Origin: Promethearchaeota archaeon | GTDB taxonomy: Archaea > Asgardarchaeota > Hermodarchaeia > Hermodarchaeales > Hermodarchaeaceae | Assembly (NCBI GenBank): GCA_048938295.1 | Contig: JBHLMI010000015.1 | Location: forward strand, 27,025-59,024 | Direction of reading: 5' to 3' | Length of the DNA stretch: 32,000 nucleotides | In this document: piece by piece, positions 6,998-22,335 of the stretch | How positions within the stretch are numbered: the first letter of the stretch is position 1 | How the letters are laid out: each line of letters opens with the position of its first letter | Notes under the pieces: model-generated | Seen by the model: only the letters and a program-made list of their open reading frames with translations | What the model was told of the DNA's origin: nothing | Database searches by the model: none | Translations under genes and position numbers: made by a program

Positions 6998-8377
6998 ATG
7001 ACCCAACACATCATCGTAATCGGATGTGGCACCGCAGGTGCCGCTGCAACCCTCCAAGCCCGCAAAACCAGTCGCGATGCCACCATCACCATCATACAGG
7101 ATGAATCTCTTCCTGAATACAGTCGCTGTGGACTACCCTATACAGTCAATCGTGTAATCCCTCAAATCGAGGATATTATCATTCATCCTGAATCTTTCTA
7201 TACAGGTAATTTGGTACAGGCTGACTTGCGGCTAAACACCGAGGTCTTAGCAGTTAACCCAAAGAAGAAAACTGTGACTATCAAAACTTCTGAAGGGGAT
7301 ACCGACTCGCTTTCATATGATTCCTTAATCCTTGCAACAGGTGCACGACCCAGCACACCCCCTGTTGATGGTTTGGATGCATCACACGTTTACCGTCTTC
7401 ACACCTTCGAGGATGCAAAGCGACTCCAATCTGCGACTAAGAAAGGGAAAACAGCAGCGATCATCGGTGCAGGGCTCGTGGGGCTCGAAACAGCAGAAGC
7501 CCTTGACACCCTAGGCCTTAAGATCACAGTAATCGAATTCTTACCCCAAGTACTACCCGCCATGATTGATGACGACATGGGGGTCCTCATCCAACAACAA
7601 ATGGAAGCCAAAGGACTCACGGTCAAAATAAGCACTGCAGCAAAACAAGTCACTAAAACCCATGTAGTTGTGGCTGATCGTGAAACGAGCACTGAAGAAA
7701 AAATCCCTGCAGATATTGTTGTGGTAGCCACAGGCGTGCGTGCAAACACAGACTTAGTGAAAGATGCAGGGATTACACTTGGTGAACGGGGAGGGATTCG
7801 CATTGATAAACGGATGGCAACCAATTACCCGGATATCTATGCAGCTGGGGATTGCGCAGAACATGACGATTTGGTGACTGGCCAGAGTATTGTCTCAGGA
7901 CTTGGAAGCATTGCCCTGCGACAAGGCGAAGTTGCTGGTATCAACGCGGCAGGGGGATCTGCAGAATTACCAGGAGTAGTATTAGCTCGAACGACACACC
8001 TTTTTGGCCTCGAAATCGCAGGAGTAGGACCTACGCGTGTCGCAGCAGAAAAAGCCAATCTTCCAGTTCTTGCCGGGAAATTTAAGGGAAGTCGCACAGC
8101 CGAATATTATCCCAGCAAAGGGGATGTTACAGTAAAGCTGCTGGCAAATAAGGACACAGGAGTCTTACTTGGCGGACAAGTCATTGGTCCGTGTGCCCAC
8201 CAACGAGTAAATGTGCTAAGTGCTGCTATATCAGCAAAAATGACAGTCCGTGAGGTGGCTGACCTGGAAACCTGTTATGCTCCTCCCGTAGCCCCAATCC
8301 GTGAACCATTTACCCTAGCAGCTCAAATCCTCGCGTTGCGCTATGAACGCATGAAACAAAAGGAGCGAAAAGGTTAG
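6998..8377 (+). CDS. FAD-dependent pyridine nucleotide-disulfide oxidoreductase (CoA-disulfide reductase / NADH oxidase family)
   Basis: GCGTAG FAD loop, single redox Cys in YSRCGLPY, LILATGA, NAD-binding GAGLVGLE, IYAAGDC, C-terminal dimerisation domain with CYAPP. Confidence 0.9.
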   Translation: MTQHIIVIGCGTAGAAATLQARKTSRDATITIIQDESLPEYSRCGLPYTVNRVIPQIEDIIIHPESFYTGNLVQADLRLNTEVLAVNPKKKTVTIKTSEGDTDSLSYDSLILATGARPSTPPVDGLDASHVYRLHTFEDAKRLQSATKKGKTAAIIGAGLVGLETAEALDTLGLKITVIEFLPQVLPAMIDDDMGVLIQQQMEAKGLTVKISTAAKQVTKTHVVVADRETSTEEKIPADIVVVATGVRANTDLVKDAGITLGERGGIRIDKRMATNYPDIYAAGDCAEHDDLVTGQSIVSGLGSIALRQGEVAGINAAGGSAELPGVVLARTTHLFGLEIAGVGPTRVAAEKANLPVLAGKFKGSRTAEYYPSKGDVTVKLLANKDTGVLLGGQVIGPCAHQRVNVLSAAISAKMTVREVADLETCYAPPVAPIREPFTLAAQILALRYERMKQKERKG

Positions 8378-8389
8378 CAGGACCTTTGC

Positions 8390-8839
8390 CTAGTCGGCCT
8401 GTTTGAGCTTCTCAATAGCCAAGGCTACTCCTTGGATGATGGCCTCCGGTTTTGGCGGACAGCCTGGAACATACACATCAACTGGAATCGCAGTATCAAC
8501 CCCACCAATGATCGTATGGGTTGCTTTAATCTCTGCTCCTTTCCCGTCAACATAGATGCCACCAGTACAGGCACAAGTCCCCAATGCCACAACGGTCTTT
8601 GGAGCGAGCATTTGGTCGTATATCCTTTTGATAAATACCTTCGAATGTTTTGACACACAGCCATTCGTGATGAGAATATCTGCATGGCGAGGATTCTGCT
8701 TCCACAGGACCCCTAATCGTTCCACGTCGAATCGAGGTGTCAGCACATCCAACACCTCAATATCACAATTGTTACACCCACCAGCATGGAGTACTGCAAT
8801 CCAAGGGGATTTCCCACGAGCCCAACGCATCACACCCAC
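8390..8839 (-). CDS. Group 4 [NiFe]-hydrogenase small subunit (NuoB/HycG/MbhJ/EchC-like)
   Basis: SPW...GGCNNCDIE, TPRFDVER, PRHADIL, ALGTCACTGG, VDVYVPGCPPKPEAI. Confidence 0.93.
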   Translation of the reverse strand: MGVMRWARGKSPWIAVLHAGGCNNCDIEVLDVLTPRFDVERLGVLWKQNPRHADILITNGCVSKHSKVFIKRIYDQMLAPKTVVALGTCACTGGIYVDGKGAEIKATHTIIGGVDTAIPVDVYVPGCPPKPEAIIQGVALAIEKLKQAD

Positions 8840-8851
8840 TTCTATCCCACC

Positions 8852-9436
8852 TTACAACCTCAATTCCATAAGTTCCCGTGTTGACATTGATCCCTTTAAC
8901 ATAAAGAACCGGTACCCAAGAATCAGGAGAACCAGAACGAGTATTCCTGTTATCAGCATCAACACAGCCTCGATGACGATGTCGAATCCTGGTGTAAGTA
9001 AATGCGCAGAGTAGACTAGTATTGATAGACTGACAGCAGTTTTACGTAAATCTGTCTTTACAACTAGTCCAAAGATGCCGATGAGTATCAGAGGCCTTGC
9101 AATCCCGGACGCTGCTAAAACGTATACTGAGGTAACATAGCTAATGATGATTAGGATGACGAGTACACCAATTGAAGGGATGACCTGAAGTAATGGGGGT
9201 TCTTCTGTGTACTTGGTATACACAGTTGTAATGAATAGAGCCATAGGTAGGAGAACAATGGAGTATACAGCCAGGGGAAGTATTTCGATGAAAGCTCCAT
9301 CAAGAAAAGCACCAACGGTGAGAAGTCCGCCGAGGATTCCAAGAAGTACTGAAACGAGGCGAAACTCATTAATCTCGATAATCGCGGCGGCAATGATAAG
9401 GATAAGGAGACCAATAATCAGGTTCACGTCTCCCAC
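8852..9436 (-). CDS. HyfE-like membrane subunit (NuoJ/NuoK-like segments)
   Basis: About 6 TM segments; LILIGIFGLVVKTDLRKTAVSL resembles NuoK/HyfE; C-terminus KGSMSTRELMELRL resembles the HyfE tail; operon context. Confidence 0.65.
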   Translation of the reverse strand: MGDVNLIIGLLILIIAAAIIEINEFRLVSVLLGILGGLLTVGAFLDGAFIEILPLAVYSIVLLPMALFITTVYTKYTEEPPLLQVIPSIGVLVILIIISYVTSVYVLAASGIARPLILIGIFGLVVKTDLRKTAVSLSILVYSAHLLTPGFDIVIEAVLMLITGILVLVLLILGYRFFMLKGSMSTRELMELRL

Positions 9437-9990
9437 CTCCGCGTGTAAAATTTCTGCGTATGAGTATTCAGTTCATAACTCCGCTTTTTACGGCACTCGC
9501 CACAAAGGGTCTTATATTTGGGAAGATCTCTAGCCACTTCTTCCTTAACTGATGCATCAACGTTTGCCAGAATTCGTTCTTCAATTTTGTCTAAGTGTTT
9601 ACGTGTGGAGATTGCATCTCCACATTGGGAACATCGAACCAATTTAAATTCAATCTTGACTTCTGCATCTTTCTTGTCCGTTGTCGCAAGTTCAAACTGC
9701 TCAGTTAAGCTGACACCATCTTCGGGACAAATATCCTCACAACGACCACAAAACACACAACGTGGGTAGAAAATCCTAAGTGTCCGTGAATCCTCCTCAT
9801 CTTTCATCGAAATCGCGTTTGCTGAACAACAGGCCACACACGCTCCGCATCCGATGCAGTTTTCATCATTGAATTGGGGCAGTCCTCGAAGCCCTGGAGG
9901 CATGTGGCTGGGGGGGCCATGGGGGTACTTGGTGGTGGCTGGTTTGAAAAATGCCTTCAATGCTTCTTTTATCGCTGTGATTTTAACCAT
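9424..9990 (-). CDS. 2x[4Fe-4S] subunit (NuoI/HycF/EchF-like)
   Basis: PATTKYP, RGLP, CIGCGACVACC, CVFCGRCEDICP, plus C-terminal CSQC...CGEC. Confidence 0.92.
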   Translation of the reverse strand: MVKITAIKEALKAFFKPATTKYPHGPPSHMPPGLRGLPQFNDENCIGCGACVACCSANAISMKDEEDSRTLRIFYPRCVFCGRCEDICPEDGVSLTEQFELATTDKKDAEVKIEFKLVRCSQCGDAISTRKHLDKIEERILANVDASVKEEVARDLPKYKTLCGECRKKRSYELNTHTQKFYTRRWET

Positions 9991-9991
9991 T

Positions 9992-10981
9992 TTAAAATCC
10001 CACCAACACGCGAATTAAGGAGAAGAGGGCAAAGGCCAGGCATACAGTTAGGAACCATCTGAACACGTGATCTATCCGGTACCTTGCGCTAGCGACATGG
10101 ACAATCGTCATAAGAATAACGATGAGAAAGCACTTAGCTAGAAAGATGAGAAGGTCAAAGGGGAAGATGAAGCCTAAACCTCCACCTAGATACAGGTCGA
10201 CAAACAGAGCAGTAAAGACATAGAACCGAAACAGCCGTGCAAGTTCAAAGATGCCAAGGAGGGGTCCACCATACTCCGTTAATGGTCCTGCAAAGATTTC
10301 TTGCTCGGCTTCAGGTATGTCCCCAAAAGGACGCATCCATGATTTCGTTAATAATGCCAAGAAAAGGGCTATAGCTGCTAGTGGATAATGGAATAGGAAC
10401 CAGTTGGGTAGGATCCAAATGAAGGTGCCCTGTTGGGCTGCAACGACATCAGTGATGGATAATGAGAAACCAAAACCTCCACGTGTAAGGGCTAGCGATG
10501 GAATGAGGAGGGCAATGGCCAGTGGAAGCTCCACACTCAGAATCATCGCCACTTCGCGACTTGCCCCAATCTTCCCCCAAGTGGAGCCTGAGGCCCATCC
10601 AGCAATGACGAAGGCTAGTGAAAACATGACTGAAAAGTACAGAATGACGATAAGGTCAAAGGTTATAGGGGGAAGAATGGGAGGCCAGAATGGAGTTCCG
10701 GGCGGAATCATAAAACTCAGGATAAGAATGGCACTTAGTGCTAGCATTGGTGAGAAGATATATAGGAATTTGTTAGCTAGAGCTGGTATAAACCGTTCCT
10801 TACCGAATAATTTGATGATATCTGCAATGGGTTGATACGCGGGGGGTCCCCTTCGAGCTTGCAACCGGGCTGACAGCTTCCTGAATACCCATGCTGCTCC
10901 CCAACTGAAAAAAAACGCTAGCCCAATCGCCGCGAAATATAGGGTAATAATGAACAGATAAACAAACACAGTTTGCATCAT
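9992..10981 (-). CDS. Membrane subunit NuoH/HycD/MbhM-like
   Basis: RKLSARLQARRGPP..QPIADIIKLFGKE, GASRE, RPFGDIPEAEQE..GPLTEYGG, ARYRID. Start reassigned to ATG 10981 (ATGA overlap with upstream stop). Confidence 0.92.
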   Translation of the reverse strand: MMQTVFVYLFIITLYFAAIGLAFFFSWGAAWVFRKLSARLQARRGPPAYQPIADIIKLFGKERFIPALANKFLYIFSPMLALSAILILSFMIPPGTPFWPPILPPITFDLIVILYFSVMFSLAFVIAGWASGSTWGKIGASREVAMILSVELPLAIALLIPSLALTRGGFGFSLSITDVVAAQQGTFIWILPNWFLFHYPLAAIALFLALLTKSWMRPFGDIPEAEQEIFAGPLTEYGGPLLGIFELARLFRFYVFTALFVDLYLGGGLGFIFPFDLLIFLAKCFLIVILMTIVHVASARYRIDHVFRWFLTVCLAFALFSLIRVLVGF

Positions 10982-12819
10982 ATCCACCCCACGAAGAGCA
11001 ACGAAAGGAGTAGTAAAGCAAAGATGGCGAACCATATAACATACAAGTTCACTAAGCCTGTGTGCGTACGTCTAATCCCATTCAATAATGGTTTGAATGG
11101 ATGTGAAAACACCGTTGATGCAGGTCGCGCCTCATGCACCTTCAAATAGGGATCTTTGAGGGCACCTCCCGTAAAGGGCATGGTCTTCTCATCTGCTTCT
11201 GAGGGCTGAGTGCCACCTTTGATTCGGTAAAGAATGTAACCAACAATTAGACCAATGAAAAGTAAGGTGGCTATCAGGAATAGAAAATCTAAAAACACCC
11301 AGGCGACAGGACTTACTGGTGGGGCGGGTAAAAGGACATTGGTGGCAGGAAAAATTAGCCATACGAGGGCAAGTTGTGGAAGAATCCCGAAGAGAATGCA
11401 ACCGGCTGCCAAAATTATGGACGGGGCAACCATGCTTCTTGGAGCCGGATGAACGTCAGCATAGGCGCCAGGTGCCTGTCCAAGAAACACGGAGCATAAT
11501 AACCGAAGAAAGACAGCGAAGGTAAATGCAGACGTGAAAATGGCGATTAACGCAAAGACTGGCTGGCCAGCGGCGATACAGGCATTGTAAACCATCCATT
11601 TGCTGATAAATCCATTGAGTAGTGGAACACCGGCAATCGACAGCGATCCAATAAGCATCACGTAACCCGTAGTAGGCATCGCTCTGAGTAACCCACCTAG
11701 CTTGTTGATGTCTCGGGTCCCAGTTTCGTGCTCAATCGCCCCAGCACTAAAGAAGAGCACTGACTTGAAGAGACTATGGTTCAACAAATGGAAGATTCCT
11801 GCCGTGATACCACCAGCAGCCACAGCCAGCCATAAGGGATCTGCAAGCAGGTTATAGTAGGTAATGGCCAATCCACCAATGCCAAGTCCAAGGATCACAT
11901 AACCCATCTGGCTCACACTGTCGAAGGCGAGGAGCCGCTTCAAATCATCTTGGGCAAAGGCGATGATGACACATACAAGCATAGTGAGAACGCCCAAAGT
12001 GCAAATTAGCACCCAGAAAGTAACACTAACGAAAAACGAGTAGAACAAGAGCAGCATCAAAAATGCGGGCATCCCCGCCACCTTTATCATCATCGTGTGG
12101 AGCAGTGTGCTGATGGATGCGGGGGCAACAGTGGATGCATCGGGAAGCCAGGTGTGGATTGGGAAGGACGGTACCTTCACCAGAAATCCGAGAAAGATCA
12201 AAAATAGTGACAATTTCCCGACGAATCCTGTCAGTATTCCAGAGGTGAGGAGGAACTCGATGCTAAAGACCCCGATTCCAACAAAACCAAATCCTAGCGT
12301 TTCCTGGTAGATAAATCCAAGTCCAACGACTACGAAGACGGAAGCAAATATCTGAATGATAAGGTACTTAACTCCCCCCTCAATAGACGTTGATTTCAAA
12401 TGATGTACGATTAGGAAAGTTGAGGTGATGGTTGCCAGCTCAGCAAATACAAAGACCCAAAACAGGTTCCAACTGTATGCCATGCCCACAAGACTCCCTA
12501 TAGTCCACAGCACAAACATACTATAGGAACTTCGACGGTGCTCGATGTAGCGAATTGAGTAGATGACAACGAGGAACCCAATGAAAGTGGCAATGAGCGC
12601 GATGAGATTTGTGTAACCATTGACCGTGAAATCTAATCTAAAAACATCGGATAAGGTAATCCATAAAGGAAACGGGAGAAAATTCAAGATGACTGAAAGG
12701 AGGGCAAATCCCGTCGCAAGAATGGCAATGGCATCGTTCGCCCTCTTGACCCTCAGACCGATAAGGCCGAGGGCGGCAGCAAGGTATAAGACGATGATGA
12801 TAATTGCAGGATCAATCAT
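10978..12819 (-). CDS. Proton-translocating antiporter-like subunit (HyfB/HycC/MrpD/NuoL-N family)
   Basis: 613 aa, many TMs; FVFAEL, GGVKYL, GFLVKVPSFPIHTWLPDA, KRLLAFDSVSQMGY, FHLLNHSLFKSVLF, LGGL, PLLNGFISKW. Confidence 0.92.
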   Translation of the reverse strand: MIDPAIIIIVLYLAAALGLIGLRVKRANDAIAILATGFALLSVILNFLPFPLWITLSDVFRLDFTVNGYTNLIALIATFIGFLVVIYSIRYIEHRRSSYSMFVLWTIGSLVGMAYSWNLFWVFVFAELATITSTFLIVHHLKSTSIEGGVKYLIIQIFASVFVVVGLGFIYQETLGFGFVGIGVFSIEFLLTSGILTGFVGKLSLFLIFLGFLVKVPSFPIHTWLPDASTVAPASISTLLHTMMIKVAGMPAFLMLLLFYSFFVSVTFWVLICTLGVLTMLVCVIIAFAQDDLKRLLAFDSVSQMGYVILGLGIGGLAITYYNLLADPLWLAVAAGGITAGIFHLLNHSLFKSVLFFSAGAIEHETGTRDINKLGGLLRAMPTTGYVMLIGSLSIAGVPLLNGFISKWMVYNACIAAGQPVFALIAIFTSAFTFAVFLRLLCSVFLGQAPGAYADVHPAPRSMVAPSIILAAGCILFGILPQLALVWLIFPATNVLLPAPPVSPVAWVFLDFLFLIATLLFIGLIVGYILYRIKGGTQPSEADEKTMPFTGGALKDPYLKVHEARPASTVFSHPFKPLLNGIRRTHTGLVNLYVIWFAIFALLLLSLLFVGWI

Positions 12820-12826
12820 TGTACAC

Positions 12827-14047
12827 TCATCTGAAGGGCTTAGATAGGTCTCGCATTGTTCCGGTTCTATGGATCTGGGTTCTGTAATCGGTTACGCTAC
12901 ATATCCGATCGGTGCAGGCCATGCACGGATCGACGGATGCTACTGTGATGGGAACATCGGCTAAGGATTCTCCTGGGAGCATGAAGAGTAACGCATAATC
13001 GTTAAGGTAAGAGGGAGTTCGGACCCTGGCTCGCTCAGGTATATTGGTCCCGTTTGAAACGAGGTAGTACATTAGTTCTCCACGAGGCGCCTCAACCCGA
13101 CCCACAGCCTCTCCAACTGGGAATTCCTTTACTTCTGCGCGAATAGGTCCACCGACGGTTTTTAATTTATCCAAACACGATTGGCTAATTTTCACGGATT
13201 CTACGAGTTCGCCTAATCGAACCAGGACCATTGAAAAGATGTCACCATCCTCTGCGGTAATGATGTCAAATGGAATCTCATCATAGGCGGCGTAGGGATC
13301 ATCCTTTCGGACATCAATAGCCATTCCCGTCGCTCGTGCTACTGGGCCCACAACGCTAATTTTTCTAGCAATTTCTTTGTCGAGAGTGCCAATTCCCTTT
13401 GTTCGTGCTCGAATTCCTCCATCTTCTAGAACTGCTTTAGTTGCCGTCTCTGTTGCCTTATGAAGTACCCTCAGCTTCTCTTCGATTTTTAGAATCATAT
13501 CTTTGTCGATGTCCCTTCGAACGCCCCCAATGGTATTCATTGCATAATGTTGACGGTTTCCTGAAATCGCTTCGAGCACGTCAAGGACATGTTCTCGGTC
13601 CCGCCAAATCAACATGAACAGGGTTTTGAAACCAATAAGCTCCATCCCAACGCCAGCCCATAATAGGTGGCTGTGGATTCTTTCTAGCTCAGCGATCAAG
13701 GTACGGATATACCGCGCGCGATCTGGAAGCTCAATTCCACCGAGCATTTCAGCAGTTTGAGTATAGGCGGTTGTGTGAGCAGCACTACAAATGCCACAGA
13801 CACGTTCAAAGAGGTAAATGTTCTGATAATAACTGCGAGATTCAGCCAGCTTCATGATACCCCGATAATTATAACCAAGCTTCAAGTCTACATCCAGAAC
13901 TTTTTCGCCTTCAACTTTCAACTTGAAGTATTCCCCTTCAAGGAGCGCCGGATGAAAGGGACCCACTGGCACAACGTATTCAGGCGCTGTGACTTTATCG
14001 ATTTGCATGGGAATGGTTTCCCTTTTTGGTTTCTTTGGTGTTCGCAT
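12827..14047 (-). CDS. Group 4 (membrane-bound) [NiFe]-hydrogenase large subunit
   Basis: All four Ni-binding Cys present: L1 ERVCGICSAAH, L2 DPCMACTDR followed by a ~25-aa extension; GPFHP, GRVEAPRGE, RVRTPS. Confidence 0.95.
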   Translation of the reverse strand: MRTPKKPKRETIPMQIDKVTAPEYVVPVGPFHPALLEGEYFKLKVEGEKVLDVDLKLGYNYRGIMKLAESRSYYQNIYLFERVCGICSAAHTTAYTQTAEMLGGIELPDRARYIRTLIAELERIHSHLLWAGVGMELIGFKTLFMLIWRDREHVLDVLEAISGNRQHYAMNTIGGVRRDIDKDMILKIEEKLRVLHKATETATKAVLEDGGIRARTKGIGTLDKEIARKISVVGPVARATGMAIDVRKDDPYAAYDEIPFDIITAEDGDIFSMVLVRLGELVESVKISQSCLDKLKTVGGPIRAEVKEFPVGEAVGRVEAPRGELMYYLVSNGTNIPERARVRTPSYLNDYALLFMLPGESLADVPITVASVDPCMACTDRICSVTDYRTQIHRTGTMRDLSKPFR

Positions 14048-14479
14048 CTACCCCACCTCCTCCGACGGCCAGGCGTAGGGGAGAAACAGTTTCCGGGGAT
14101 CAGGGTGACCTTCGAATATGATCCCTAGTAGGTCCATTAGCTCCCTTTCAGCCCAATTAGCTGACCAAGCAATCTCGGTGATTGAATCGATAATAGGTTT
14201 TTTTCGTGGTAGCCGGACCTTCATAGCGAGATGTAGACCTTTTTCTTGATGGGAAAAATCAAAGTGATAGACGAGATCGAAACCGTGTAGTCCTTCATCG
14301 TTCGCTGAAATTGCAACTAATCGTCCATCCAGTTTCTCAACTAATAATCGTGCAATTGAGCGAATATGCTGCGATTTAGATCGGACAAAGACTCGTGAAT
14401 ACTTGTCAGTTTTTTCATCCTTATAGTCGTCATTAACTAAGGCGATTAATTGCCCTCGAATCTCATCCATCCGACCCAT
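14048..14479 (-). CDS. NuoC/EchD/MbhK-like subunit
   Basis: RLVAISA, LVYHF, DSITEIAWSANWAERELMDLLGIIFEGHPDPRKLFLP. Confidence 0.9.
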   Translation of the reverse strand: MGRMDEIRGQLIALVNDDYKDEKTDKYSRVFVRSKSQHIRSIARLLVEKLDGRLVAISANDEGLHGFDLVYHFDFSHQEKGLHLAMKVRLPRKKPIIDSITEIAWSANWAERELMDLLGIIFEGHPDPRKLFLPYAWPSEEVG

Positions 14480-15355
14480 TTAGTTCTCCTCCATCATAAG
14501 TTTAGCAAGAAGGGCATCGGTTTTCACGCGATGCTTGTCCACACCAATTTCCTGAGGTCGGAACCCCAGACTTAGTGCCATTAGTTCCGTGAGAGTAAGC
14601 ATTGGGATATCATAGTGTAGTCCCTGTCGTTTCAGTAGCAACTGGGCCTTCTCTAACACATCAAAACAACCAGGACAGACTGTCACCATGCAATCCACCT
14701 TGGCTTCCTGCATCTTTGCTAATTTGAACTTGGCGCGTTCTTCCATCGCTTCATCCATGGAATATAATGACAATGGAAACCCACAACAGAGCTTCTCAGC
14801 TCCATACTCTATCACCTTAACCCCTAGAGTCTCAATAATATCATCAAAGTAGGAGATGAATTTACTCGCGGGGCTTTTGTACAGTTTACAACCATATTGA
14901 ATCCCGACCTTCAGTTTCGACAATGGCTTTTTAATTGAGGCTTTTAGGAGCTGTAGACCAACATCCTCAACAATTACTTCGAGAAAATGTTTGACCTTGA
15001 CTTTGCCCTCTACACTTTTATCAATTAGCGAAAGATGTGAGTTTACCTCCATCAACAATTCTGGGTCATTCGCAATGGCTTCCCGTACCTCGTACAAAGT
15101 TTCCCAGCATCCATTACATAGCGCTAGAATATCTTCACCTAAGCATTCTGCCAGAGCAAGGTTTCGTGCAGACACATATAACCAAGTATCGTGATCCGCT
15201 AGACGAACAATTTCGGGTACTGGACAGCACGTAGCCCCTTCCATGTCGATTAATTTTATTTTCAAGAGTGGAGCAATTCGTCGTAGGGACGCCTCTGCAA
15301 ATGGCTGCATTGAAGGAATATAACAACCTAAGAAGAGTGCGTAATTTCTGATCAT
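14480..15355 (-). CDS. hdrB: Heterodisulfide reductase subunit B-like protein (two CCG domains)
   Basis: Two complete CCG motifs: C-x31-CC-x35-C-x2-C (FLGC..ATCCP..LCNGC) and C-x33-CC-x35-C-x2-C (YGC..LCCG..VCPGC); SARNLALA. Confidence 0.93.
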   Translation of the reverse strand: MIRNYALFLGCYIPSMQPFAEASLRRIAPLLKIKLIDMEGATCCPVPEIVRLADHDTWLYVSARNLALAECLGEDILALCNGCWETLYEVREAIANDPELLMEVNSHLSLIDKSVEGKVKVKHFLEVIVEDVGLQLLKASIKKPLSKLKVGIQYGCKLYKSPASKFISYFDDIIETLGVKVIEYGAEKLCCGFPLSLYSMDEAMEERAKFKLAKMQEAKVDCMVTVCPGCFDVLEKAQLLLKRQGLHYDIPMLTLTELMALSLGFRPQEIGVDKHRVKTDALLAKLMMEEN

Positions 15356-15365
15356 TTACTGGTCC

Positions 15366-15632
15366 CTATTCGTCTCTTTCTTCCCACATAGCCTTGTCAT
15401 AAAGCTCGGTGCTTTTCACTAACTCTTTTAGTTCGCGCCGTGCTTTTTCATCCTGATAGGCTGTTGGAGGTTTCCGGTTGATCCCCAGGTCCTCTCGAAT
15501 CCTTTCCCGTGTGGATGCGAGTTTTGGGACATGACCCACTCTAATGATATTAACGATTGGATTTTTGAACGATTTTGGAAGTGTCTTTACTTTCTTTCTC
15601 CAAGGATAGAGGGTGAGTTCATCGTCACTCAT
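15366..15632 (-). CDS. 88-aa protein resembling only the C-terminal region of HdrC (no Fe-S motifs)
   Basis: True start likely ATG 15632 (8-nt overlap with ferredoxin stop, GGGAG upstream). VNIIRVGHVPK..RERIREDLGINRKPPT..EKARRELKELVKST resembles the HdrC tail pattern (GH.VP...R..LGL...PPT...A..E...); directly upstream of hdrB; no Cys. Similarity judged from memory. Confidence 0.65.
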   Translation of the reverse strand: MSDDELTLYPWRKKVKTLPKSFKNPIVNIIRVGHVPKLASTRERIREDLGINRKPPTAYQDEKARRELKELVKSTELYDKAMWEERDE

Positions 15633-16101
15633 TAAGTTTTGACTCCCAGATGTTTTTGGCCTCTCGTCTTGACATGACTTGTAAAGCTCCGGTACTACAA
15701 TATTCAGCGCATCGTGGCTCTCCATCGCAGAAGTTGCATTTATTGCTGATACCCAATGACTGCTCGAAAACAGGAACAGCGATTGGGCAGGCAAAATTAC
15801 ACGATCTGCAGCCAATACAGCGCATCTGATCTATTGTAACATATCCTTTATCTGGATCCTTCATAATCGCTTTCGGTTTAGTTGGACAGGCTAGTTCACA
15901 TAGTGGATGCTCACAATGCGTGCAGTGAGCGTTAACAAAACGATTCAACCCCTCATCTTGTGGAAGCACCCTGAGATAGGCTTTTTCCAAATTGGCTTCT
16001 TCATGATGGTAAAACGAACAGGCTATCATGCAATAGTAGCAGCCAGAACACTTCTCTGAGTCATACACCAATACTTTTTGCTTTAGAAATTCATCCGACA
16101 T
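15625..16101 (-). CDS. 4x[4Fe-4S] electron-transfer protein (HycB/HydN/DmsB/CooF-like)
   Basis: 16 Cys in four groups: CSGCYYCMIAC, CTHCEHPLCELAC, CIGCRSCNFAC, CNFCDGEPRCAEYC. Start reassigned to ATG 16101. Confidence 0.9.
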   Translation of the reverse strand: MSDEFLKQKVLVYDSEKCSGCYYCMIACSFYHHEEANLEKAYLRVLPQDEGLNRFVNAHCTHCEHPLCELACPTKPKAIMKDPDKGYVTIDQMRCIGCRSCNFACPIAVPVFEQSLGISNKCNFCDGEPRCAEYCSTGALQVMSRREAKNIWESKLNE

Positions 16102-16142
16102 TCGGGTCCTTCCACGGGTAAGTCTCCATGTCGGAGTAATAC

Positions 16143-16170
16143 GTATGGCATACACCTATAAATGTATAAA
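16143..16170 (-). promoter_or_regulatory. Possible internal promoter/operator between hydA and the ferredoxin gene
   Basis: Two TTTATA hexamers on the minus strand (16157-16162, 16165-16170) and inverted repeat GTATG-G-CATAC (16143-16153) in the only large gap of the cluster. Confidence 0.4.
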
Positions 16171-16184
16171 CAGCACACACGGTT

Positions 16185-17465
16185 CTAAATCGCATGTAAG
16201 TAATGTACGGAGCAAGAAATGCACGGGTCGTAGGCTCGAATGAGCATATTGAGCTTCAATTCAGCTTCTTCTTTTGATAAATCTTGGAATGTGGCAGCAA
16301 GTACTCGAATGTCTGCTTCAATGTTGGCATAATTCATGGCGGTGGGGGTGATTACATCTGCGGATGTCACCATCCCCCTTGCATCGAAGGTATATCGATG
16401 GATGAGTACACCTCGTGGAGCTTCAACTGCAGCAGCACTCGTTCCAGCCCGGATCTCGTGTTTCGCCACATGAGGTTCTAATTTTGCCATTCTAAGCTCA
16501 TCGATGATTTCAATGGCATGTTCAAGATAATGCAGGTACTCGATGGCCTGACCGATGTTCATTTGGAAAATATCATAGCTAGGCAGTTTTAAGCTGATTT
16601 TTTGTATCATCTGTTTTGCGTTATCAGAAAGTTGATCATGTGCCACGTTCAATCGGGCGAGTGAGCCAACCACAAAGGGTGTGCCTTTGATTTCACTAAA
16701 TTTTGCATGCGCGTAGGGCACGTTTCGTTCTTTTATGATAGTTTGATATTCAGGAACAGAAGTTTGGAGTCCCTTATCTGTGACCAGTGGTCCGTCATGA
16801 ATCGGGTATTCCTTGGGGTGCTTGACCGCTAGATATTGGCTTCGCCTTACAAGTTGTGGGTCGGTGAAATTTGCCATCAATTCAATCTGTGCCTGTGCAT
16901 CAGGGATTGCAGCTTGAAGCCGTTTCTTCATCGACTCTAATTGTAGGAGTGAGGGAACATGTGTAAATCCGCCCACAACTGCACAGAGGGGGTGTGTGTG
17001 CCTTCCTCCGGCAAGTACCATAAGATCGTTTCCAAGTTTTTTGAGCTGTAATGCTCGTTTTACTTCCGTTTGATATTTCGGGAGCATTTCCACTACATTT
17101 CGGGCTCCGACATAATCCGGGAGTGCAAGAAAGTTAATATGGAGCGCGTGGCTCTCAAGCATATCTCCTAGCAACATGAGTTTGCGAAGTTGAATAGTTT
17201 GGTGACTTGTTTCGATCCGTAATGCAGCTTCCACAGCCCGTAATGCAGCTACGGCATGGGAGTGGCTGCAAATACCACAGATGCGGGACATGATGTGGGA
17301 GACTTCAGCGAAGCACTGATTTCTTAGGAATGCTTCGAATAGGCGAGTTCCTTCGGTGACACGCATTTCGACAAGTGGCTCTTTGCCCTGTTGCACCTCT
17401 ACAAAGAGGTCACCATGCCCTTCGACTCGGGCTAAATGATGGATGTCGAATTTTGCTACAACCAT
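16185..17465 (-). CDS. hydA: Group 3b [NiFe]-hydrogenase (sulfhydrogenase) large subunit alpha
   Basis: ARVEGHG, RLFEAFL, L1 RICGICSHSH, EAPRGVLIHRY, ITPTAMN, L2 IRAYDPCISCSVH. Confidence 0.96.
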   Translation of the reverse strand: MVVAKFDIHHLARVEGHGDLFVEVQQGKEPLVEMRVTEGTRLFEAFLRNQCFAEVSHIMSRICGICSHSHAVAALRAVEAALRIETSHQTIQLRKLMLLGDMLESHALHINFLALPDYVGARNVVEMLPKYQTEVKRALQLKKLGNDLMVLAGGRHTHPLCAVVGGFTHVPSLLQLESMKKRLQAAIPDAQAQIELMANFTDPQLVRRSQYLAVKHPKEYPIHDGPLVTDKGLQTSVPEYQTIIKERNVPYAHAKFSEIKGTPFVVGSLARLNVAHDQLSDNAKQMIQKISLKLPSYDIFQMNIGQAIEYLHYLEHAIEIIDELRMAKLEPHVAKHEIRAGTSAAAVEAPRGVLIHRYTFDARGMVTSADVITPTAMNYANIEADIRVLAATFQDLSKEEAELKLNMLIRAYDPCISCSVHYLHAI

Positions 17466-18247
17466 TCGATGTCTAACCTCTTTTTCAGTTGCTTCATGAA
17501 GTCTTCCATTGAAGCATTAAACATACGGAATTTCCTAACGACAACATCAAAACTCGCTCCCTTCTGTGAGAACATGTTGATCTCCGATTCCACATTAGCT
17601 TGTGGGACAGGTCCCCAACAGCCTTCACAGGGGAAGCCAACACTGGGACAACGTGCTCCACATCCAGCACGTGTTATCGGGCCTAAACAGAGTTCTCCTT
17701 CCTTCATCAGGCAGATATTTTCTTTGAGACGACATTCCACACATACAGCGTAGTTTTTCTGTGGAGGCTCTCCTCCGGTCAGTAGGGCCGTGAGGAGCTC
17801 TATGAATTCATCACCGGCAATGGGGCAACCTTGCAACTCATAATCAACCTTGACATATTCCTTCAAAGGTTGTATCTCGGGGAGTGTTCGCACATGAGAG
17901 GCATCCCCATATACACTTTGTTTGAGCTCTTCGATATTTCGACCGTTTCGAAGAGCGTTAATACCGCCAGTGGTGGCACATGCACCCAAGGCAACTAACA
18001 CCTTTGATTTTTCTCGCAGCTCCTTAAGATGGGCTAGTTCTGCATCATTTGTGACTGATCCTTCGATAAAGCAGACATCATATGGTCCCGGGTGTTTCGC
18101 AGAGCTTCCCATTCGAAATTGCACGAGGTTAATTTGCCGAAGAATATCTAAGAGCTCTTCTTCCTGATTAAGGACCTCGAGCTGGCATCCTGCACAACAG
18201 GTTAATCCGTAAAAAGCAACGACGGGTTTTGATTTCTCTGTGGGCAT
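17456..18247 (-). CDS. hydD: Group 3b hydrogenase small subunit delta
   Basis: LTCCAGCQ, IEGSV, LGACATTGG, GCP, VCVEC..CLGPITRAGCGARCP..PCEGCWG. Confidence 0.95.
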   Translation of the reverse strand: MPTEKSKPVVAFYGLTCCAGCQLEVLNQEEELLDILRQINLVQFRMGSSAKHPGPYDVCFIEGSVTNDAELAHLKELREKSKVLVALGACATTGGINALRNGRNIEELKQSVYGDASHVRTLPEIQPLKEYVKVDYELQGCPIAGDEFIELLTALLTGGEPPQKNYAVCVECRLKENICLMKEGELCLGPITRAGCGARCPSVGFPCEGCWGPVPQANVESEINMFSQKGASFDVVVRKFRMFNASMEDFMKQLKKRLDIEWL

Positions 18248-18271
18248 TTCTTGAATTCCTCCTTTGGTTCC

Positions 18272-19129
18272 TTATACTGCCCCTCGTTGTGTCTTTACTT
18301 CGGCATAACTAAACACTGGACCGTCTTGACAGACGAATTTTGACCCCACAAGACAATGGCTACAATGCCCGACACCGCATTTCATGCGACGTTCAAGGGA
18401 TAAGAAGATACGATCATCCGGTAATCCAATCTTTTCTAGTTCGCGCATTACAAACTTGTACATGATAGGTGGTCCACACACAAGCGCGTAGGTGTCTTTA
18501 GGTGAAATGTTGATACGGTCAAAAAGAATCGTGACCACGCCAATGTTTCCCGCCCAACAATGTTCATCATCCCGGTCAACGGTTGCAACATATTCGATGT
18601 CCCGTCGGTTGTCCCAAAGATATAGTTCATCTTTGAAAAGGAGCTCCTCTGGGCACCGAGCACCATACATGATTTGCAGTTTCCCGTAATCGTCACGGTT
18701 TTCAATGATGTCGAGGATTACTGGTCGCAGGGGTACGACCCCAATTCCACCACCGATGATAACGATGTTTTTCCCTTTCACGTCATCCATGGGCCATCCA
18801 TGTCCAAAGGGTCCACGGAATCCCACGATGCTATCGGGGTTTAGGTTTTGAAGAACATTGGTTAACTTACCAACTGAGCGAATACAGAGATCGAACGAAT
18901 TGGTCTTATTTGGGGATGAGCAAATGCCAAACGGGGCCTCGCCATATCCAAAAATGGACAGGAGCATAAACTGACCTGGTGTAAAGGTGAACTGCTTCTG
19001 GATCTCTGGGTTAACATACTCAAAGGTATATAGATTAGTATCGGGGGTCTGTGGCGTTATTCTCACTAGACGGGCCTGATTGTACTGGTAAGCATTTTTT
19101 TCATGGCGAAGTGAAACGGAATGGGTCAT
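18272..19129 (-). CDS. hydG: Group 3b hydrogenase gamma subunit (FAD/NAD(P)-binding, [2Fe-2S])
   Basis: FTPGQF, GEAPFGICS, FRGPFGHGWP, GGGIGVVPLR, VCGPPIM, ERRMKCGVGHCSHC..VCQDGPVF. Confidence 0.95.
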   Translation of the reverse strand: MTHSVSLRHEKNAYQYNQARLVRITPQTPDTNLYTFEYVNPEIQKQFTFTPGQFMLLSIFGYGEAPFGICSSPNKTNSFDLCIRSVGKLTNVLQNLNPDSIVGFRGPFGHGWPMDDVKGKNIVIIGGGIGVVPLRPVILDIIENRDDYGKLQIMYGARCPEELLFKDELYLWDNRRDIEYVATVDRDDEHCWAGNIGVVTILFDRINISPKDTYALVCGPPIMYKFVMRELEKIGLPDDRIFLSLERRMKCGVGHCSHCLVGSKFVCQDGPVFSYAEVKTQRGAV

Positions 19130-19133
19130 CTTG

Positions 19134-20207
19134 TTAGTTCCCTCCCTCTTGGATATCAGTCAATAATTCAATCATATCAATATCTGCGGGACAAGTTCGG
19201 GTACAGCGTCCACAGCCTACACAACCAATTTGCTCGATCTGTTCGGGCTCAATCCAGAATTTATGATAGATACGGAATCGCACACGTGACGGAATGGTTG
19301 GCCGGAAATTATGCCCTCCTGCAACGAGGGCAAAATCTACAAGTTGACAAGAATCCCAATTGCGAACACGAGAACCTTTATTTAAATCCAGTTCTACTCG
19401 GTCCTTCACATCAAAACAGAAGCAAGTGGGGCAGACCATAGTACAAGCACCACATCCAAAACACCGATTTCCCAAACGGACCCAAATCTCCCCTTCATAA
19501 CCTGCCTCCAGTTGCTCAGGAAGCTTCTTGAATTCTGAAATCACATCAGGGAAGGTTTCTTCTCGACTAGTGAGGAGCTGATTGACGCTTTTGCTTTGTT
19601 CTTTTGATGCCGATGAGAAAAGTGATTTAGTGTAATCAATCACTAACTGTCCAGTTTCAGTGAGTACATCCACATAGTAGTTATCATGGAGTTCTGTGAG
19701 CATAAGATCTGCACCTTCGGTTGACGAAAGTGTCATTGCTGACTTACAGAAACTCTCTTCGCACGGAGTAAGGCAATTCAACCCGATGATAATTCCCCGT
19801 TCACGTCGGCGGGTTCGATAAGGATCAGGATAAACTTGGGTGAGAATCTTATCGTGAAACTGAATGGCTGCTAGATCACAGGAATGAATGCCAACTATCA
19901 CAAATCGCTTCCCGTTCCAGAGGGAGATTTCTTCATTTTCTTCTAGGGGGTTAGTTATGCTGAGTTGAGGACCTAAGGAAAAGCCAACCATTTCTTCTTT
20001 GGGTGGTATGAAGTACTTCTTTGGCGGAAGAATCGTTGTATCATAATCCAACCGCAGCTGAGATCCATCACTGATTTCATCAAAGACAAACTGGGTTTTC
20101 TTCGCTACTGGCCCATAGACAGTCAGAATTTGGGTGAGTTTTTCAATAAACGAAGCAATGTCTCCTTTCTTTAAGATTAGCGGACTTATTGTACTTTCAG
20201 GAGCCAT
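19134..20207 (-). CDS. hydB: Group 3b hydrogenase beta subunit (AsrA-like, 4Fe-4S)
   Basis: TILPPKKYF, GIHSCD, CFGCGACTMVCPTCFC, RNWDSC, CVGCGRCTRTCP. Start ATG 20207 (GGTGA RBS) or GTG 20216. Confidence 0.95.
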   Translation of the reverse strand: MAPESTISPLILKKGDIASFIEKLTQILTVYGPVAKKTQFVFDEISDGSQLRLDYDTTILPPKKYFIPPKEEMVGFSLGPQLSITNPLEENEEISLWNGKRFVIVGIHSCDLAAIQFHDKILTQVYPDPYRTRRRERGIIIGLNCLTPCEESFCKSAMTLSSTEGADLMLTELHDNYYVDVLTETGQLVIDYTKSLFSSASKEQSKSVNQLLTSREETFPDVISEFKKLPEQLEAGYEGEIWVRLGNRCFGCGACTMVCPTCFCFDVKDRVELDLNKGSRVRNWDSCQLVDFALVAGGHNFRPTIPSRVRFRIYHKFWIEPEQIEQIGCVGCGRCTRTCPADIDMIELLTDIQEGGN

Positions 20208-20442
20208 AATAATCACCCATTCGTCGAGACCATTTTCTGGTAGAGAACCAATCGCTAACCCTTGTTGCGAGGTTAAAATGTCTTAGGCTAGTTCAACTTG
20301 GTGCTTTTTTGATTTTCCACACATCCTGTCATGAACCCCCACGCCTTTATAAGCAACGCTACGAGCGATAAAGAATTAATTAGGAGTTCCCTTAGAGAGG
20401 ATGACTGTAAAGGATTGATTCACCTAATATCGGGGTTATCTT

Positions 20443-22335
20443 ATGGAGGCAAACCAACAAACGGAGTTTGGAGTAAAAAAGCAACCTTCGCTTGCTGACC
20501 TGTTACACGTATCGCAGTCTGCAATCAGTCTCTATTTTGAACTTGCCGCAGAACTGTCTCCTATTCCATTGACAGAAATTCAGGAACAGCATGGCTTATC
20601 CACAAAGAAAGCGGATCAGTATCTCACTGAGCTCCAAACCTGTGGATTGGTCCGGCGTAATCCAGACGAAACCTATGAGGCTGTCGCCCCAGTTGAAGCA
20701 GTTATGATTGCTCTCACCCGAGTACGTGATCTCTTACGCCAGCTTCGAACAGATTTCCCAGAACGAGTTGAAACTGGTATCCCTGGAATCGATGCTTCGA
20801 TGAAAAAAGAAGTTGAAACACTCCCCTACCAATTAGAAAAGCTTCGGACGAATATTGACCAGAGACTAGATACTGCATTTGATGGATTTCGAAATAGAGC
20901 CGAGACCATGCAAGCATCCCCCGTTTTCGAAGTGTTTACAGATGAGCTTCGGGCTGAGCTGCTCTCAGAAGTTGATGAACGAATGATGGAAACCCGAAAT
21001 CAACTCAATGATTTCGAATCGATTGACGCGTTCATCAACGTCCTCAACAAACTGAAGAACGACGTGTTTGATATCGTCAACATCTCACTGTCAGATATGC
21101 GTGAGCAATCCTTCCGGCTCCACGAACTAGAGAGCTTCAGTGAAACCCTAATCGAGCTCTGGAATGTCACCCCTTCGATTGTCGAGGAGCACTTGGCAGA
21201 TTTTGAACAGGAAATGAGTGTCTTAGAAGCATCACTCAGCGACCTCATGGAGACTAAATACCGGTTAGGGGCTTTTAAAGGGGTCATTGAGAACTTCGCT
21301 CGAGACCACATCATGACCGCTGTAAAACGGCTCAAAGCTAACTTCCAGGTTTCTCTCACTGAGGCTATCCAAGATCATCTGCAAGAGGCTCAGGAACGCT
21401 TCGAAGAGGTTGCCAAATCAGCCCAGCAAGAGTTTGATAAATTGCGAGAACAACTAGCTGAATGGGTTCGTAACGCGTTGGATCTAGCTTTTAGTGAAGT
21501 GATTCAGCGGAATCAGAAAGCTACAACAGAACTGGCTGATCGGTTAGCTGACTTAACACTTGCTTTTCAATCCCGTTTTGCTGAAGGACTTGAAAATTCC
21601 GTGAAGCAAGTCAAACTCCAAGCTCGCGAACTTGACACCCATATAGCCAAAATTCCTGATATCGTTGACAAGCTACGAACCCAAGAGTTTACTCCACAAC
21701 TCAATCAGATGGTAACCCAAAGTGAACAGCACTTAACGAAAATCACACATGATATCCCCAAAGCTTTCTCCGAGTGGCGAACTCAATACATCAAATCCAC
21801 AAATGCACAGCTTGCTAGCGTTTTAGAGGAAGCAGAAGGACAGGTTACCCTTGCTACTCAAAGTGTGAACCAATTCTGGCGCCGATCTAAGGAATCCGAA
21901 CCCTCAACTTTTGACCTGTACCAATTTGTGGTTGGAGAAAAGGAATTTCATTCCTATATGGCCAGCCAAATCGCTCGGGCTCGAAGTCAACTATTCATCA
22001 TTCTTCCGCGAGCAATTCGAATCAAAGTCAAACTCCTAAAAATGGTTCCAAGCGATGTTCGTGTGCGCATCGTTGTAGCTGACACACCTGCTACGAAAAC
22101 GGTCCAAAGCTTACAGCGTCTAGCGGCGAAAAACTATAACTATCAGCTCCGTCACGATCCTCGTGGAGACCTTTGGGGTGTCACTCACGACAATGAAGAA
22201 ATCATCTTAGGAAATACTTCCAAGGGTACAGCAAATGTTGTCGGAATTGCGTCAAGTCATGAAGACCATGTTGACATGCTCCGCTCTATCATGGAGACGC
22301 GTTGGCTCCATGCACGCAGCCTACCATCAAAGTAG
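20443..22335 (+). CDS. TrmB-family regulator with long central coiled-coil insertion
   Basis: N-terminal wHTH (YLTELQTCGLVRR..YEAVAPVEA), about 400 aa of amphipathic helical repeats, C-terminal TrmB effector/PLD-like domain (ARARSQLFIILP, VRVRIVV, VTHDNEEIILG). Confidence 0.75.
   Translation: MEANQQTEFGVKKQPSLADLLHVSQSAISLYFELAAELSPIPLTEIQEQHGLSTKKADQYLTELQTCGLVRRNPDETYEAVAPVEAVMIALTRVRDLLRQLRTDFPERVETGIPGIDASMKKEVETLPYQLEKLRTNIDQRLDTAFDGFRNRAETMQASPVFEVFTDELRAELLSEVDERMMETRNQLNDFESIDAFINVLNKLKNDVFDIVNISLSDMREQSFRLHELESFSETLIELWNVTPSIVEEHLADFEQEMSVLEASLSDLMETKYRLGAFKGVIENFARDHIMTAVKRLKANFQVSLTEAIQDHLQEAQERFEEVAKSAQQEFDKLREQLAEWVRNALDLAFSEVIQRNQKATTELADRLADLTLAFQSRFAEGLENSVKQVKLQARELDTHIAKIPDIVDKLRTQEFTPQLNQMVTQSEQHLTKITHDIPKAFSEWRTQYIKSTNAQLASVLEEAEGQVTLATQSVNQFWRRSKESEPSTFDLYQFVVGEKEFHSYMASQIARARSQLFIILPRAIRIKVKLLKMVPSDVRVRIVVADTPATKTVQSLQRLAAKNYNYQLRHDPRGDLWGVTHDNEEIILGNTSKGTANVVGIASSHEDHVDMLRSIMETRWLHARSLPSK

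Follow-up and report, generated by a model that had tools for sequence, protein, structure and literature searches.

The window, by which we mean the whole 32,000-nucleotide stretch of the Promethearchaeota archaeon contig analyzed here, carries a reverse-strand cluster in which a small gene, mini-HdrC, lies between a four-cluster ferredoxin and an HdrB-like catalytic subunit and is followed by the genes of a group-4 [NiFe]-hydrogenase (Table 1). Translation of the small gene gives 88 residues without a single cysteine, encoded directly before hdrB, just as an earlier note on this DNA had described, and all three peptides quoted there are present. Its ATG overlaps the TGA of the upstream ferredoxin gene by 8 nt, in a start/stop arrangement (ATGAGTGA) that is kept in relatives, and a gap of 10 nt separates its end from the HdrB-like gene; the position immediately upstream of hdrB is shared by all relatives. 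The 149-aa form listed in the ORF track, which begins at a TTG (15815), was rejected as an ORF-calling artefact: the additional codons fall within the ferredoxin gene, read in a different frame, and the Met start of the 88-aa form (MSD/MSE/MND) is found in 15 of 16 close homologues, the remaining one being an N-terminally cut fragment, which bears out the earlier suspicion that the ORF track's N-terminus was spurious. For the ferredoxin, which the ORF track draws from 15625 to 16155 with a GTG at 16155, the true start is likely the ATG at 16101; this gives 158 aa, and relatives have 154-164 aa. Neither the 88-aa nor the 149-aa form of mini-HdrC has a match in Pfam. The expectation that annotation pipelines would call the gene hypothetical holds for NCBI throughout and for JGI in the case of the Asgard copies, but JGI names several others 'heterodisulfide reductase subunit C'.

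Table 1. Genes of the hydrogenase-Hdr cluster and its flanks in the window, and fused counterparts of mini-HdrC at other loci (prefixed L).
Feature	Coordinates	Strand	Remarks
CoA-disulfide reductase / NADH oxidase family flavoprotein	6998-8377	+	TIGR03385, 315 bits (under cut-off)
Rest of membrane module, group-4 hydrogenase	8390-12819	-	
NuoB-like small subunit	8390-8839	-	
194-aa protein	8852-9436	-	between NuoI-like and NuoB-like genes
NuoI-like subunit	9424-9990	-	
NuoH-like subunit	9992-11035	-	
Antiporter-like subunit	10978-12819	-	
Group-4 [NiFe]-hydrogenase large subunit, NuoD-like	12827-14047	-	both CxxC nickel-binding pairs (CGIC, CMAC)
NuoC-like (Complex1_30kDa) group-4 hydrogenase subunit	14048-14479	-	fused to mini domain in other genomes
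HdrB-like catalytic subunit	14480-15355	-	two CCG domains, all ten cluster cysteines
Mini-HdrC	15366-15632	-	88 aa, Cys-free; residues 17-88 homologous to the HdrB-clasping C-terminal tail of HdrC
Four-cluster ferredoxin, DmsB/HybA/NrfC type (Fer4_11), EheI equivalent	15625-16101	-	four Cys motifs in translation
Group-3b (sulfhydrogenase-like) hydrogenase, four genes	16185-20216	-	co-directional, directly upstream
630-aa protein	20443-22335	+	weak coiled-coil matches only
NuoC-like + mini-HdrC fusion	L019:6147-6833	-	directly upstream of HdrB
NuoC-like + mini-HdrC fusion	L109:3400-4071	-	directly upstream of HdrB
NuoC-like + mini-HdrC fusion	L110:3552-4217	-	directly upstream of HdrB

The ten cluster cysteines of the HdrB-like subunit (C11, C43, C44, C80, C83, C156, C190, C191, C227, and C230) are invariant in 49 relatives, and the protein scores 230 bits against TIGR03288, under the cut-off of 345. 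Both HdrB CCG cysteine sets and the CxxC pairs of the large subunit, the features that define an HdrB-interacting group-4 hydrogenase, are present, and HdrA is absent from the cluster. Neither Pfam nor NCBIfam gave a family for the 194-aa protein encoded in the membrane module; in two Hermodarchaeota-type relatives (loci L001 and L023), a 191-aa gene, likewise without a family, occupies the equivalent position. The same two loci share both flanking genes: the flavoprotein, which faces the end of the hydrogenase-Hdr operon in convergent orientation and might give a clue to the disulfide or persulfide that HdrB acts on, and the 630-aa protein, which is divergent from the hydrogenase operon and has a 630-631 aa counterpart in the equivalent place. 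On the upstream side, the complete group-3b operon sits 83 nt from the likely ferredoxin start, a junction that is kept only in Hermodarchaeota-type relatives (L001, L023, L029-L031, and L036) and that the loci of Culexmicrobium, Methanomethylicia, and Odinarchaeota lack. In TACK-type clusters, a GcvH-like lipoyl carrier is found beside the ferredoxin-mini-HdrB genes (L017:7127-7522, L019:14589-15026, and L021:5842-6237), and at L021 (including 14224-14864) the genes that follow encode a lipoate-ligase C-terminal domain and a radical-SAM protein; there is no GcvH in the window's cluster. The link of GcvH to such clusters is discussed in PMC9723716.

Mini-HdrC resembles one part of HdrC. The NCBIfam HdrC model TIGR03290 matches it with an E value of 2.5e-6 over profile positions 79-142 of 144 only, and the whole-protein score of 27.5 bits lies far below the cut-off of 160, a mark that the canonical HdrC of the same genome passes with 209 bits. 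The two proteins are 38% identical (BLASTP, E = 2e-7), and a profile-profile alignment of 34 minis with 22 full HdrCs (hhalign, probability 98.8%, E = 1.4e-16) pairs mini residues 17-88 with residues 110-185 of that canonical HdrC, so that the total lack of profile similarity named in the earlier note as fatal to a kinship with HdrC was not seen. Searched against the PDB, the family profile likewise found solved HdrC chains (residues 117-171 of 185, E = 1e-4). Among 80 HdrB loci of reference genomes, the gene upstream of HdrB is a Cys-free mini with a full-length profile match in 10; the alternative is a complete HdrC, which contains 8-11 Cys and a pair of CxxCxxCxxxC motifs. In nearly all of the ~65 full HdrCs encoded upstream of canonical HdrBs, the mini profile matches the final ~60 residues, with up to 53 bits. 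An 86-aa 'mini-like' ORF at L102, truncated by the end of its contig, is an incomplete HdrC and was left out of the count. The template-free AF2 model of mini-HdrC alone (pLDDT 67.8, pTM 0.37) has helices at 20-32, 40-49, 62-73, and 76-81 and an N terminus in coil, and when it was compared by Foldseek with 350,542 PDB chains, the best seven matches were all HdrC chains (TMq 0.54-0.65, rmsd 2.1-2.8 Å), with noise beyond them; the E values are modest (0.008-0.12) because the query is short. Residues 1-16, by contrast with the rest, include a conserved YPWRK motif without HdrC counterpart, nearly invariant in the family as YP[WL]RK. Mini-HdrC is therefore homologous to the post-ferredoxin tail of HdrC only: the C-terminal segment homologous to the HdrB-contacting tail is there, but the two CX2CX2CX3C motifs for two [4Fe-4S] clusters are missing, and since it has no Cys and scores far under the cut-off, it stands outside HdrC proper. 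The claim of a tail-only HdrC made in the earlier note is upheld by the sequence and profile matches as well as by the predicted fold.

The genome encodes three HdrB paralogues, one with the canonical HdrC, one with a divergent full-length HdrC, and the one in the window with mini-HdrC. The two further HdrC-HdrB pairs, whose HdrCs are full-length and bear clusters, lie on contigs C51 (L002:1408-2848) and C23 (L003:1441-2882), the latter after an HdrA-like gene; given these two other full pairs, the window HdrB is a third, specialised paralogue. In a two-chain model built with alignments, mini-HdrC residues 18-81 are placed on HdrB residues 9-64, 107-113, 197-199, and 269-274, a predicted surface on the N-terminal CCG domain that adjoins the CC motif (HdrB 40-43 contacted). 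The three runs gave ipSAE values of 0.80, 0.69, and 0.68 (median 0.69), compared with 0.24 for the best control, with a contact agreement of at least 64% and a partner pLDDT of at least 55; the mark used for complex models is reached by 58 of 80 solved complexes and by 2 of 110 mismatched pairs. Because HdrBC complexes have been solved, the score may reflect memory of those structures; it shows likeness to solved HdrBC and is no proof that the pair binds. The AlphaFold-type check with HdrB proposed earlier thus gave a placement on HdrB, at 0.69 against 0.24, that is subject to this same reservation. Seven of the nine nearly invariant residues of mini-HdrC (P19, G33, R46, G50, P55, A58, and A64) fall in the predicted HdrB interface; the other two, P10 and K13, lie outside it, which suggests a second partner for the N terminus.

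The strongest independent argument for a tether comes from natural fusions. L019 contains a second cluster whose NuoC-like subunit has 228 aa; residues 144-226 of this subunit match mini profile positions 10-91 (49.7 bits), and HdrB follows directly. Such fusions occur in seven protein clusters (221-226 aa), for which Bathyarchaeota and Thermoprotei are the sole organism labels. Two Asgard genomes from other families carry them as well, with YPLRKP or HPLRKP exactly at the junction. Since the mini domain is here covalently joined to a structural hydrogenase subunit, the fusions argue for a role of mini-HdrC as a strap that would tether HdrB to the hydrogenase arm. The earlier proposal of an HdrB-binding adaptor therefore draws support from the complex model, with its possible memory, and independently from the NuoC fusions. 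In an HdrB tree of 93 rows, a quick and unrooted one with some long branches, the 19 HdrBs with a tail-only partner (16 free and 3 fused) form one clade (SH-aLRT 99); the tree requires a single change of state, and the free and fused types separate inside the clade. Since the tree has no root, it is parsimony, together with the much broader distribution of full-length HdrC, that favours a loss of the ferredoxin domain over its gain.

The fusions also bear on a different role, that of a transient maturation or assembly factor, in which mini-HdrC would hold the N-terminal CCG domain of HdrB while the noncubane clusters are inserted and would be neither a permanent subunit nor a tether. The modelled contacts next to the CC motif would suit such a factor, as would a protein that is small, partly disordered on its own, and translationally coupled in the operon. 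We nevertheless regard this role as unlikely, as its homologue is built permanently into HdrC in the solved canonical Hdr complexes, and covalent fusion to a structural NuoC-like subunit suits a stable subunit better than a released chaperone.

The ferredoxin gene raises the question of whether it and mini-HdrC are the halves of one former HdrC gene, separated by a frameshift or by fission; the two genes overlap by those 8 nt and together amount to a ferredoxin plus a tail. The ferredoxin, however, is of the four-cluster DmsB/HybA type: it matches Fer4_11 with an E value of 3e-14, its best NCBIfam neighbours are DmsB/HybA/NrfC-type proteins, and the HdrC-type families Fer4_8 and Fer4_17 reach E values of only 0.003-0.005, under their cut-offs. 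TIGR03290 gave no match over it in the scan of the window's own genome. It is thus not the N-terminal domain of an HdrC, which argues against a split gene. Among 1.8 billion representatives searched with the Asgard mini profile, which also missed the NuoC fusions, neither a fusion of Fer4_11 with the tail nor one of the tail with HdrB was found, ordinary HdrC being the only ferredoxin-plus-tail protein, and the two-gene layout is conserved across phyla, so that we consider a split HdrC very improbable. The order of Fer4_11 ferredoxin, mini, HdrB, and a NuoB- or NuoC-like gene with other group-4 genes holds in all 15 free-form loci, some of them from near-identical genomes, and canonical HdrBC loci are without a Fer4_11-type ferredoxin. 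From this invariant gene order we infer, as the earlier note did, that the task of electron transfer has passed to the upstream ferredoxin.

Mini-HdrC is a real gene under purifying selection. Compared with five relatives, its dN/dS is 0.06-0.10 wherever dS could be measured, with dS ranging up to saturation. A word-indexed search found close relatives in 17 clusters (62-126 aa, 65-88% identity), and an exhaustive profile search of the 1.8 billion representatives added ~20 divergent ones, nearly all between 84 and 116 aa; the family comprises ~35 sequence clusters of 83-116 aa in total, from several Asgard and TACK-type lineages. Cys is absent from all close homologues, and the divergent clusters are Cys-free with the single exception of P0028, which has one terminal Cys. 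Source labels are Hermod-, Odin-, and Baldrarchaeota, 'Promethearchaeota', Methanomethylicia, Culexmicrobium, Bathyarchaeota, Thermoprotei, and 'Nitrososphaerota', with Hermodarchaeota as the label of the window's close relatives. In a sample of 301 Asgard genomes, where a free form was counted only when the match began at the start of the mini profile and scored at least 78 bits, 17 genomes from five families carry one, and the remaining profile matches are tails of ordinary HdrCs. P0187, in the mini-HdrC cluster of P0034, bears the RefSeq label [Eubacterium] cellulosolvens (WP_455369087.1, on a 21-kb contig); this bacterial label probably reflects contamination or a mislabelled contig, the family being otherwise archaeal. 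The 848-aa P0029, with four partial mini-profile matches, was disregarded as repetitive, with scattered domain-of-unknown-function matches. That mini-HdrC is a functionless decayed remnant or an assembly or annotation artefact, as its want of a Pfam family and its 'hypothetical' label in most pipelines might have suggested, can be practically dismissed given this dN/dS, a length and start that are constant in dozens of independent assemblies from several phyla, and the presence of the same stretch in contigs assembled from four sediment runs within a single study, of which one run may be the source of this DNA; no RNA run is listed for the stretch. The conservation of the short form elsewhere, at ~90 aa and free of Cys in many genomes, likewise speaks against the other refuting outcome named in the earlier note, a decayed copy with full-length homologues; the genome's own full-length HdrCs are separate genes.

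Known systems place the gene further. In soluble HdrABC, HdrC (TIGR03290/COG1150/K03390; 5ODC, 7BKB, and 8RVU) corresponds to mini residues 17-88 in the segment after its second [4Fe-4S] motif. The known function of HdrC is to relay electrons. Mini-HdrC shares with it the predicted fold, the position directly upstream of hdrB, and the predicted contact with HdrB, but it lacks the entire two-cluster ferredoxin domain and any Cys, carries the additional N-terminal YPWRK, and has no HdrA in its cluster; without ferredoxin domain and Cys, it cannot relay electrons. Fusions of the HdrD / TfrB / GlcF kind, which are among the NCBIfam matches of the window HdrB, also pair an HdrC-derived segment with CCG domains, but they keep the Fe-S ferredoxin domain in a single polypeptide, whereas the mini is the strap alone, free or fused to NuoC.

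Clusters of this type have been published as Drh (Methanocellales), Ehd (Methanomethylicia), Ehe (Culexarchaeia), and Ehg. In Supplementary File 5 of PMC9723716, the gene that precedes HdrB goes by 'EheH / HdrC?' in the Culexarchaeia Ehe cluster and by 'EhdD / hdrC' in the Methanomethylicia Ehd cluster; HdrB is EheG there, and the Fer4_11 protein, whose gene stands ahead of EheH, is EheI. The contig that carries our locus L033 is the same Culexmicrobium GB-1867-005 contig on which that table places EheH (gene 164), and the small protein of L033 shares 42% identity with the window mini-HdrC (E = 1.6e-22). Full-length mini-profile matches of 91-123 bits were obtained in Culexmicrobium (L032-L034) and Methanomethylicia (L035), and tblastn gave 37-46% identity between the window mini and the genes of these two groups. 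The designation Ehd reportedly goes back to Borrel et al. 2019. The hallmarks of EheH/EhdD, namely a ~90-aa product, a gene flanked by those of a Fer4_11 ferredoxin and HdrB next to group-4 genes, and kinship in sequence, are all found in the window; with L033 on the contig of the published table, the window gene is an Asgard member of this family. As in Ehe, the small gene lies between the EheI- and EheG-type genes next to a group-4 hydrogenase, but unlike in Ehe and Ehd, NuoC and NuoD are separate and NuoB comes last in the window, a group-3b hydrogenase lies upstream, and no GcvH, SdhA, or HdrA2B2C2 genes are neighbours. The novelty that the earlier note implied was therefore overstated, as the gene already had these two names; the window gene refines a known system and adds no new one, the tail-only, cluster-free reading and the NuoC fusions being useful refinements.

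Two other systems are close. Drh, the 'disulfide-reducing hydrogenase' of Methanocellales, has a re-called small ORF, drhH, beside hdrB, according to the account of Lyu and Lu 2015 cited in PMC6046458 and PMC9723716. Like the window, it combines a group-4-like hydrogenase, HdrB, and a small ORF between hdrB and drhB, but it has no antiporter-like subunit. A 2024 preprint (bioRxiv 10.1101/2024.07.04.601786) ascribes to Hermod-, Odin-, Baldr-, and Asgardarchaeia [NiFe]-hydrogenases of groups 4l/4q 'with a peripheral heterodisulfide reductase domain', and the text consulted makes no mention of a small Cys-free subunit. Three of those lineages (Hermod-, Odin-, and Baldr-) carry mini-HdrC in our data, the window large subunit being assigned at the group-4 level only. 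In the literature available to this search, we found no description of a truncated, tail-only or cluster-free 'HdrC' or of a NuoC fusion.

Taken together, mini-HdrC is in our judgment probably a genuine HdrC-derived subunit that has kept the C-terminal strap only, without any Fe-S cluster, and that fixes HdrB and the ferredoxin on the group-4 hydrogenase; its physical contact with HdrB, the route of the electrons, the place of docking, and the substrate are what we infer. Mini-HdrC most likely straps the disulfide-reducing HdrB onto the membrane-bound hydrogenase. It would wrap around the neighbouring HdrB paralogue at the N-terminal CCG domain, and HdrB and the four-cluster ferredoxin would thereby be fixed on the peripheral arm of the hydrogenase, near the NuoC-like subunit. 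The NuoB- and NuoI-like clusters of the hydrogenase would then exchange electrons with the four-cluster ferredoxin, which would feed the two noncubane clusters of HdrB, where a disulfide would be reduced or formed. Mini-HdrC itself, with no redox centre, would hold HdrB at a position analogous to that of the electron-input module of complex I.

A wider reading, which we offer tentatively and hold to be somewhat less probable than even, is that of a portable HdrB-docking strap found on three carriers: the two-cluster ferredoxin domain in classical HdrC, the NuoC-like subunit in the fusions, and none in the window gene. The YPWRK of the free form, which in the fusions stands at the NuoC junction, would plug into the NuoC/NuoD face, and HdrB with the four-cluster ferredoxin would replace the NADH-dehydrogenase module of a complex-I-like machine, which would give Asgard and TACK archaea an H2:disulfide oxidoreductase that translocates ions and needs no HdrA.

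Membrane hydrogenases linked to HdrB (Ehd, Ehe, Drh, and Asgard group-4) have been proposed as energy-conserving modules of disulfide respiration in methanogenic and non-methanogenic archaea, among them relatives of the eukaryotic ancestor, and in those parts of the literature covered here the 'HdrC' of these complexes is named like an ordinary Fe-S subunit. Because mini-HdrC falls under every HdrC cut-off and is 'hypothetical' at NCBI, automated metabolic reconstructions miss or mislabel it. If the subunit is cluster-free, models of these complexes change: the electron path must go via the four-cluster ferredoxin, and the small protein would be a structural strap, while the NuoC fusions indicate where on the hydrogenase arm HdrB may dock and so point to a concrete architecture.
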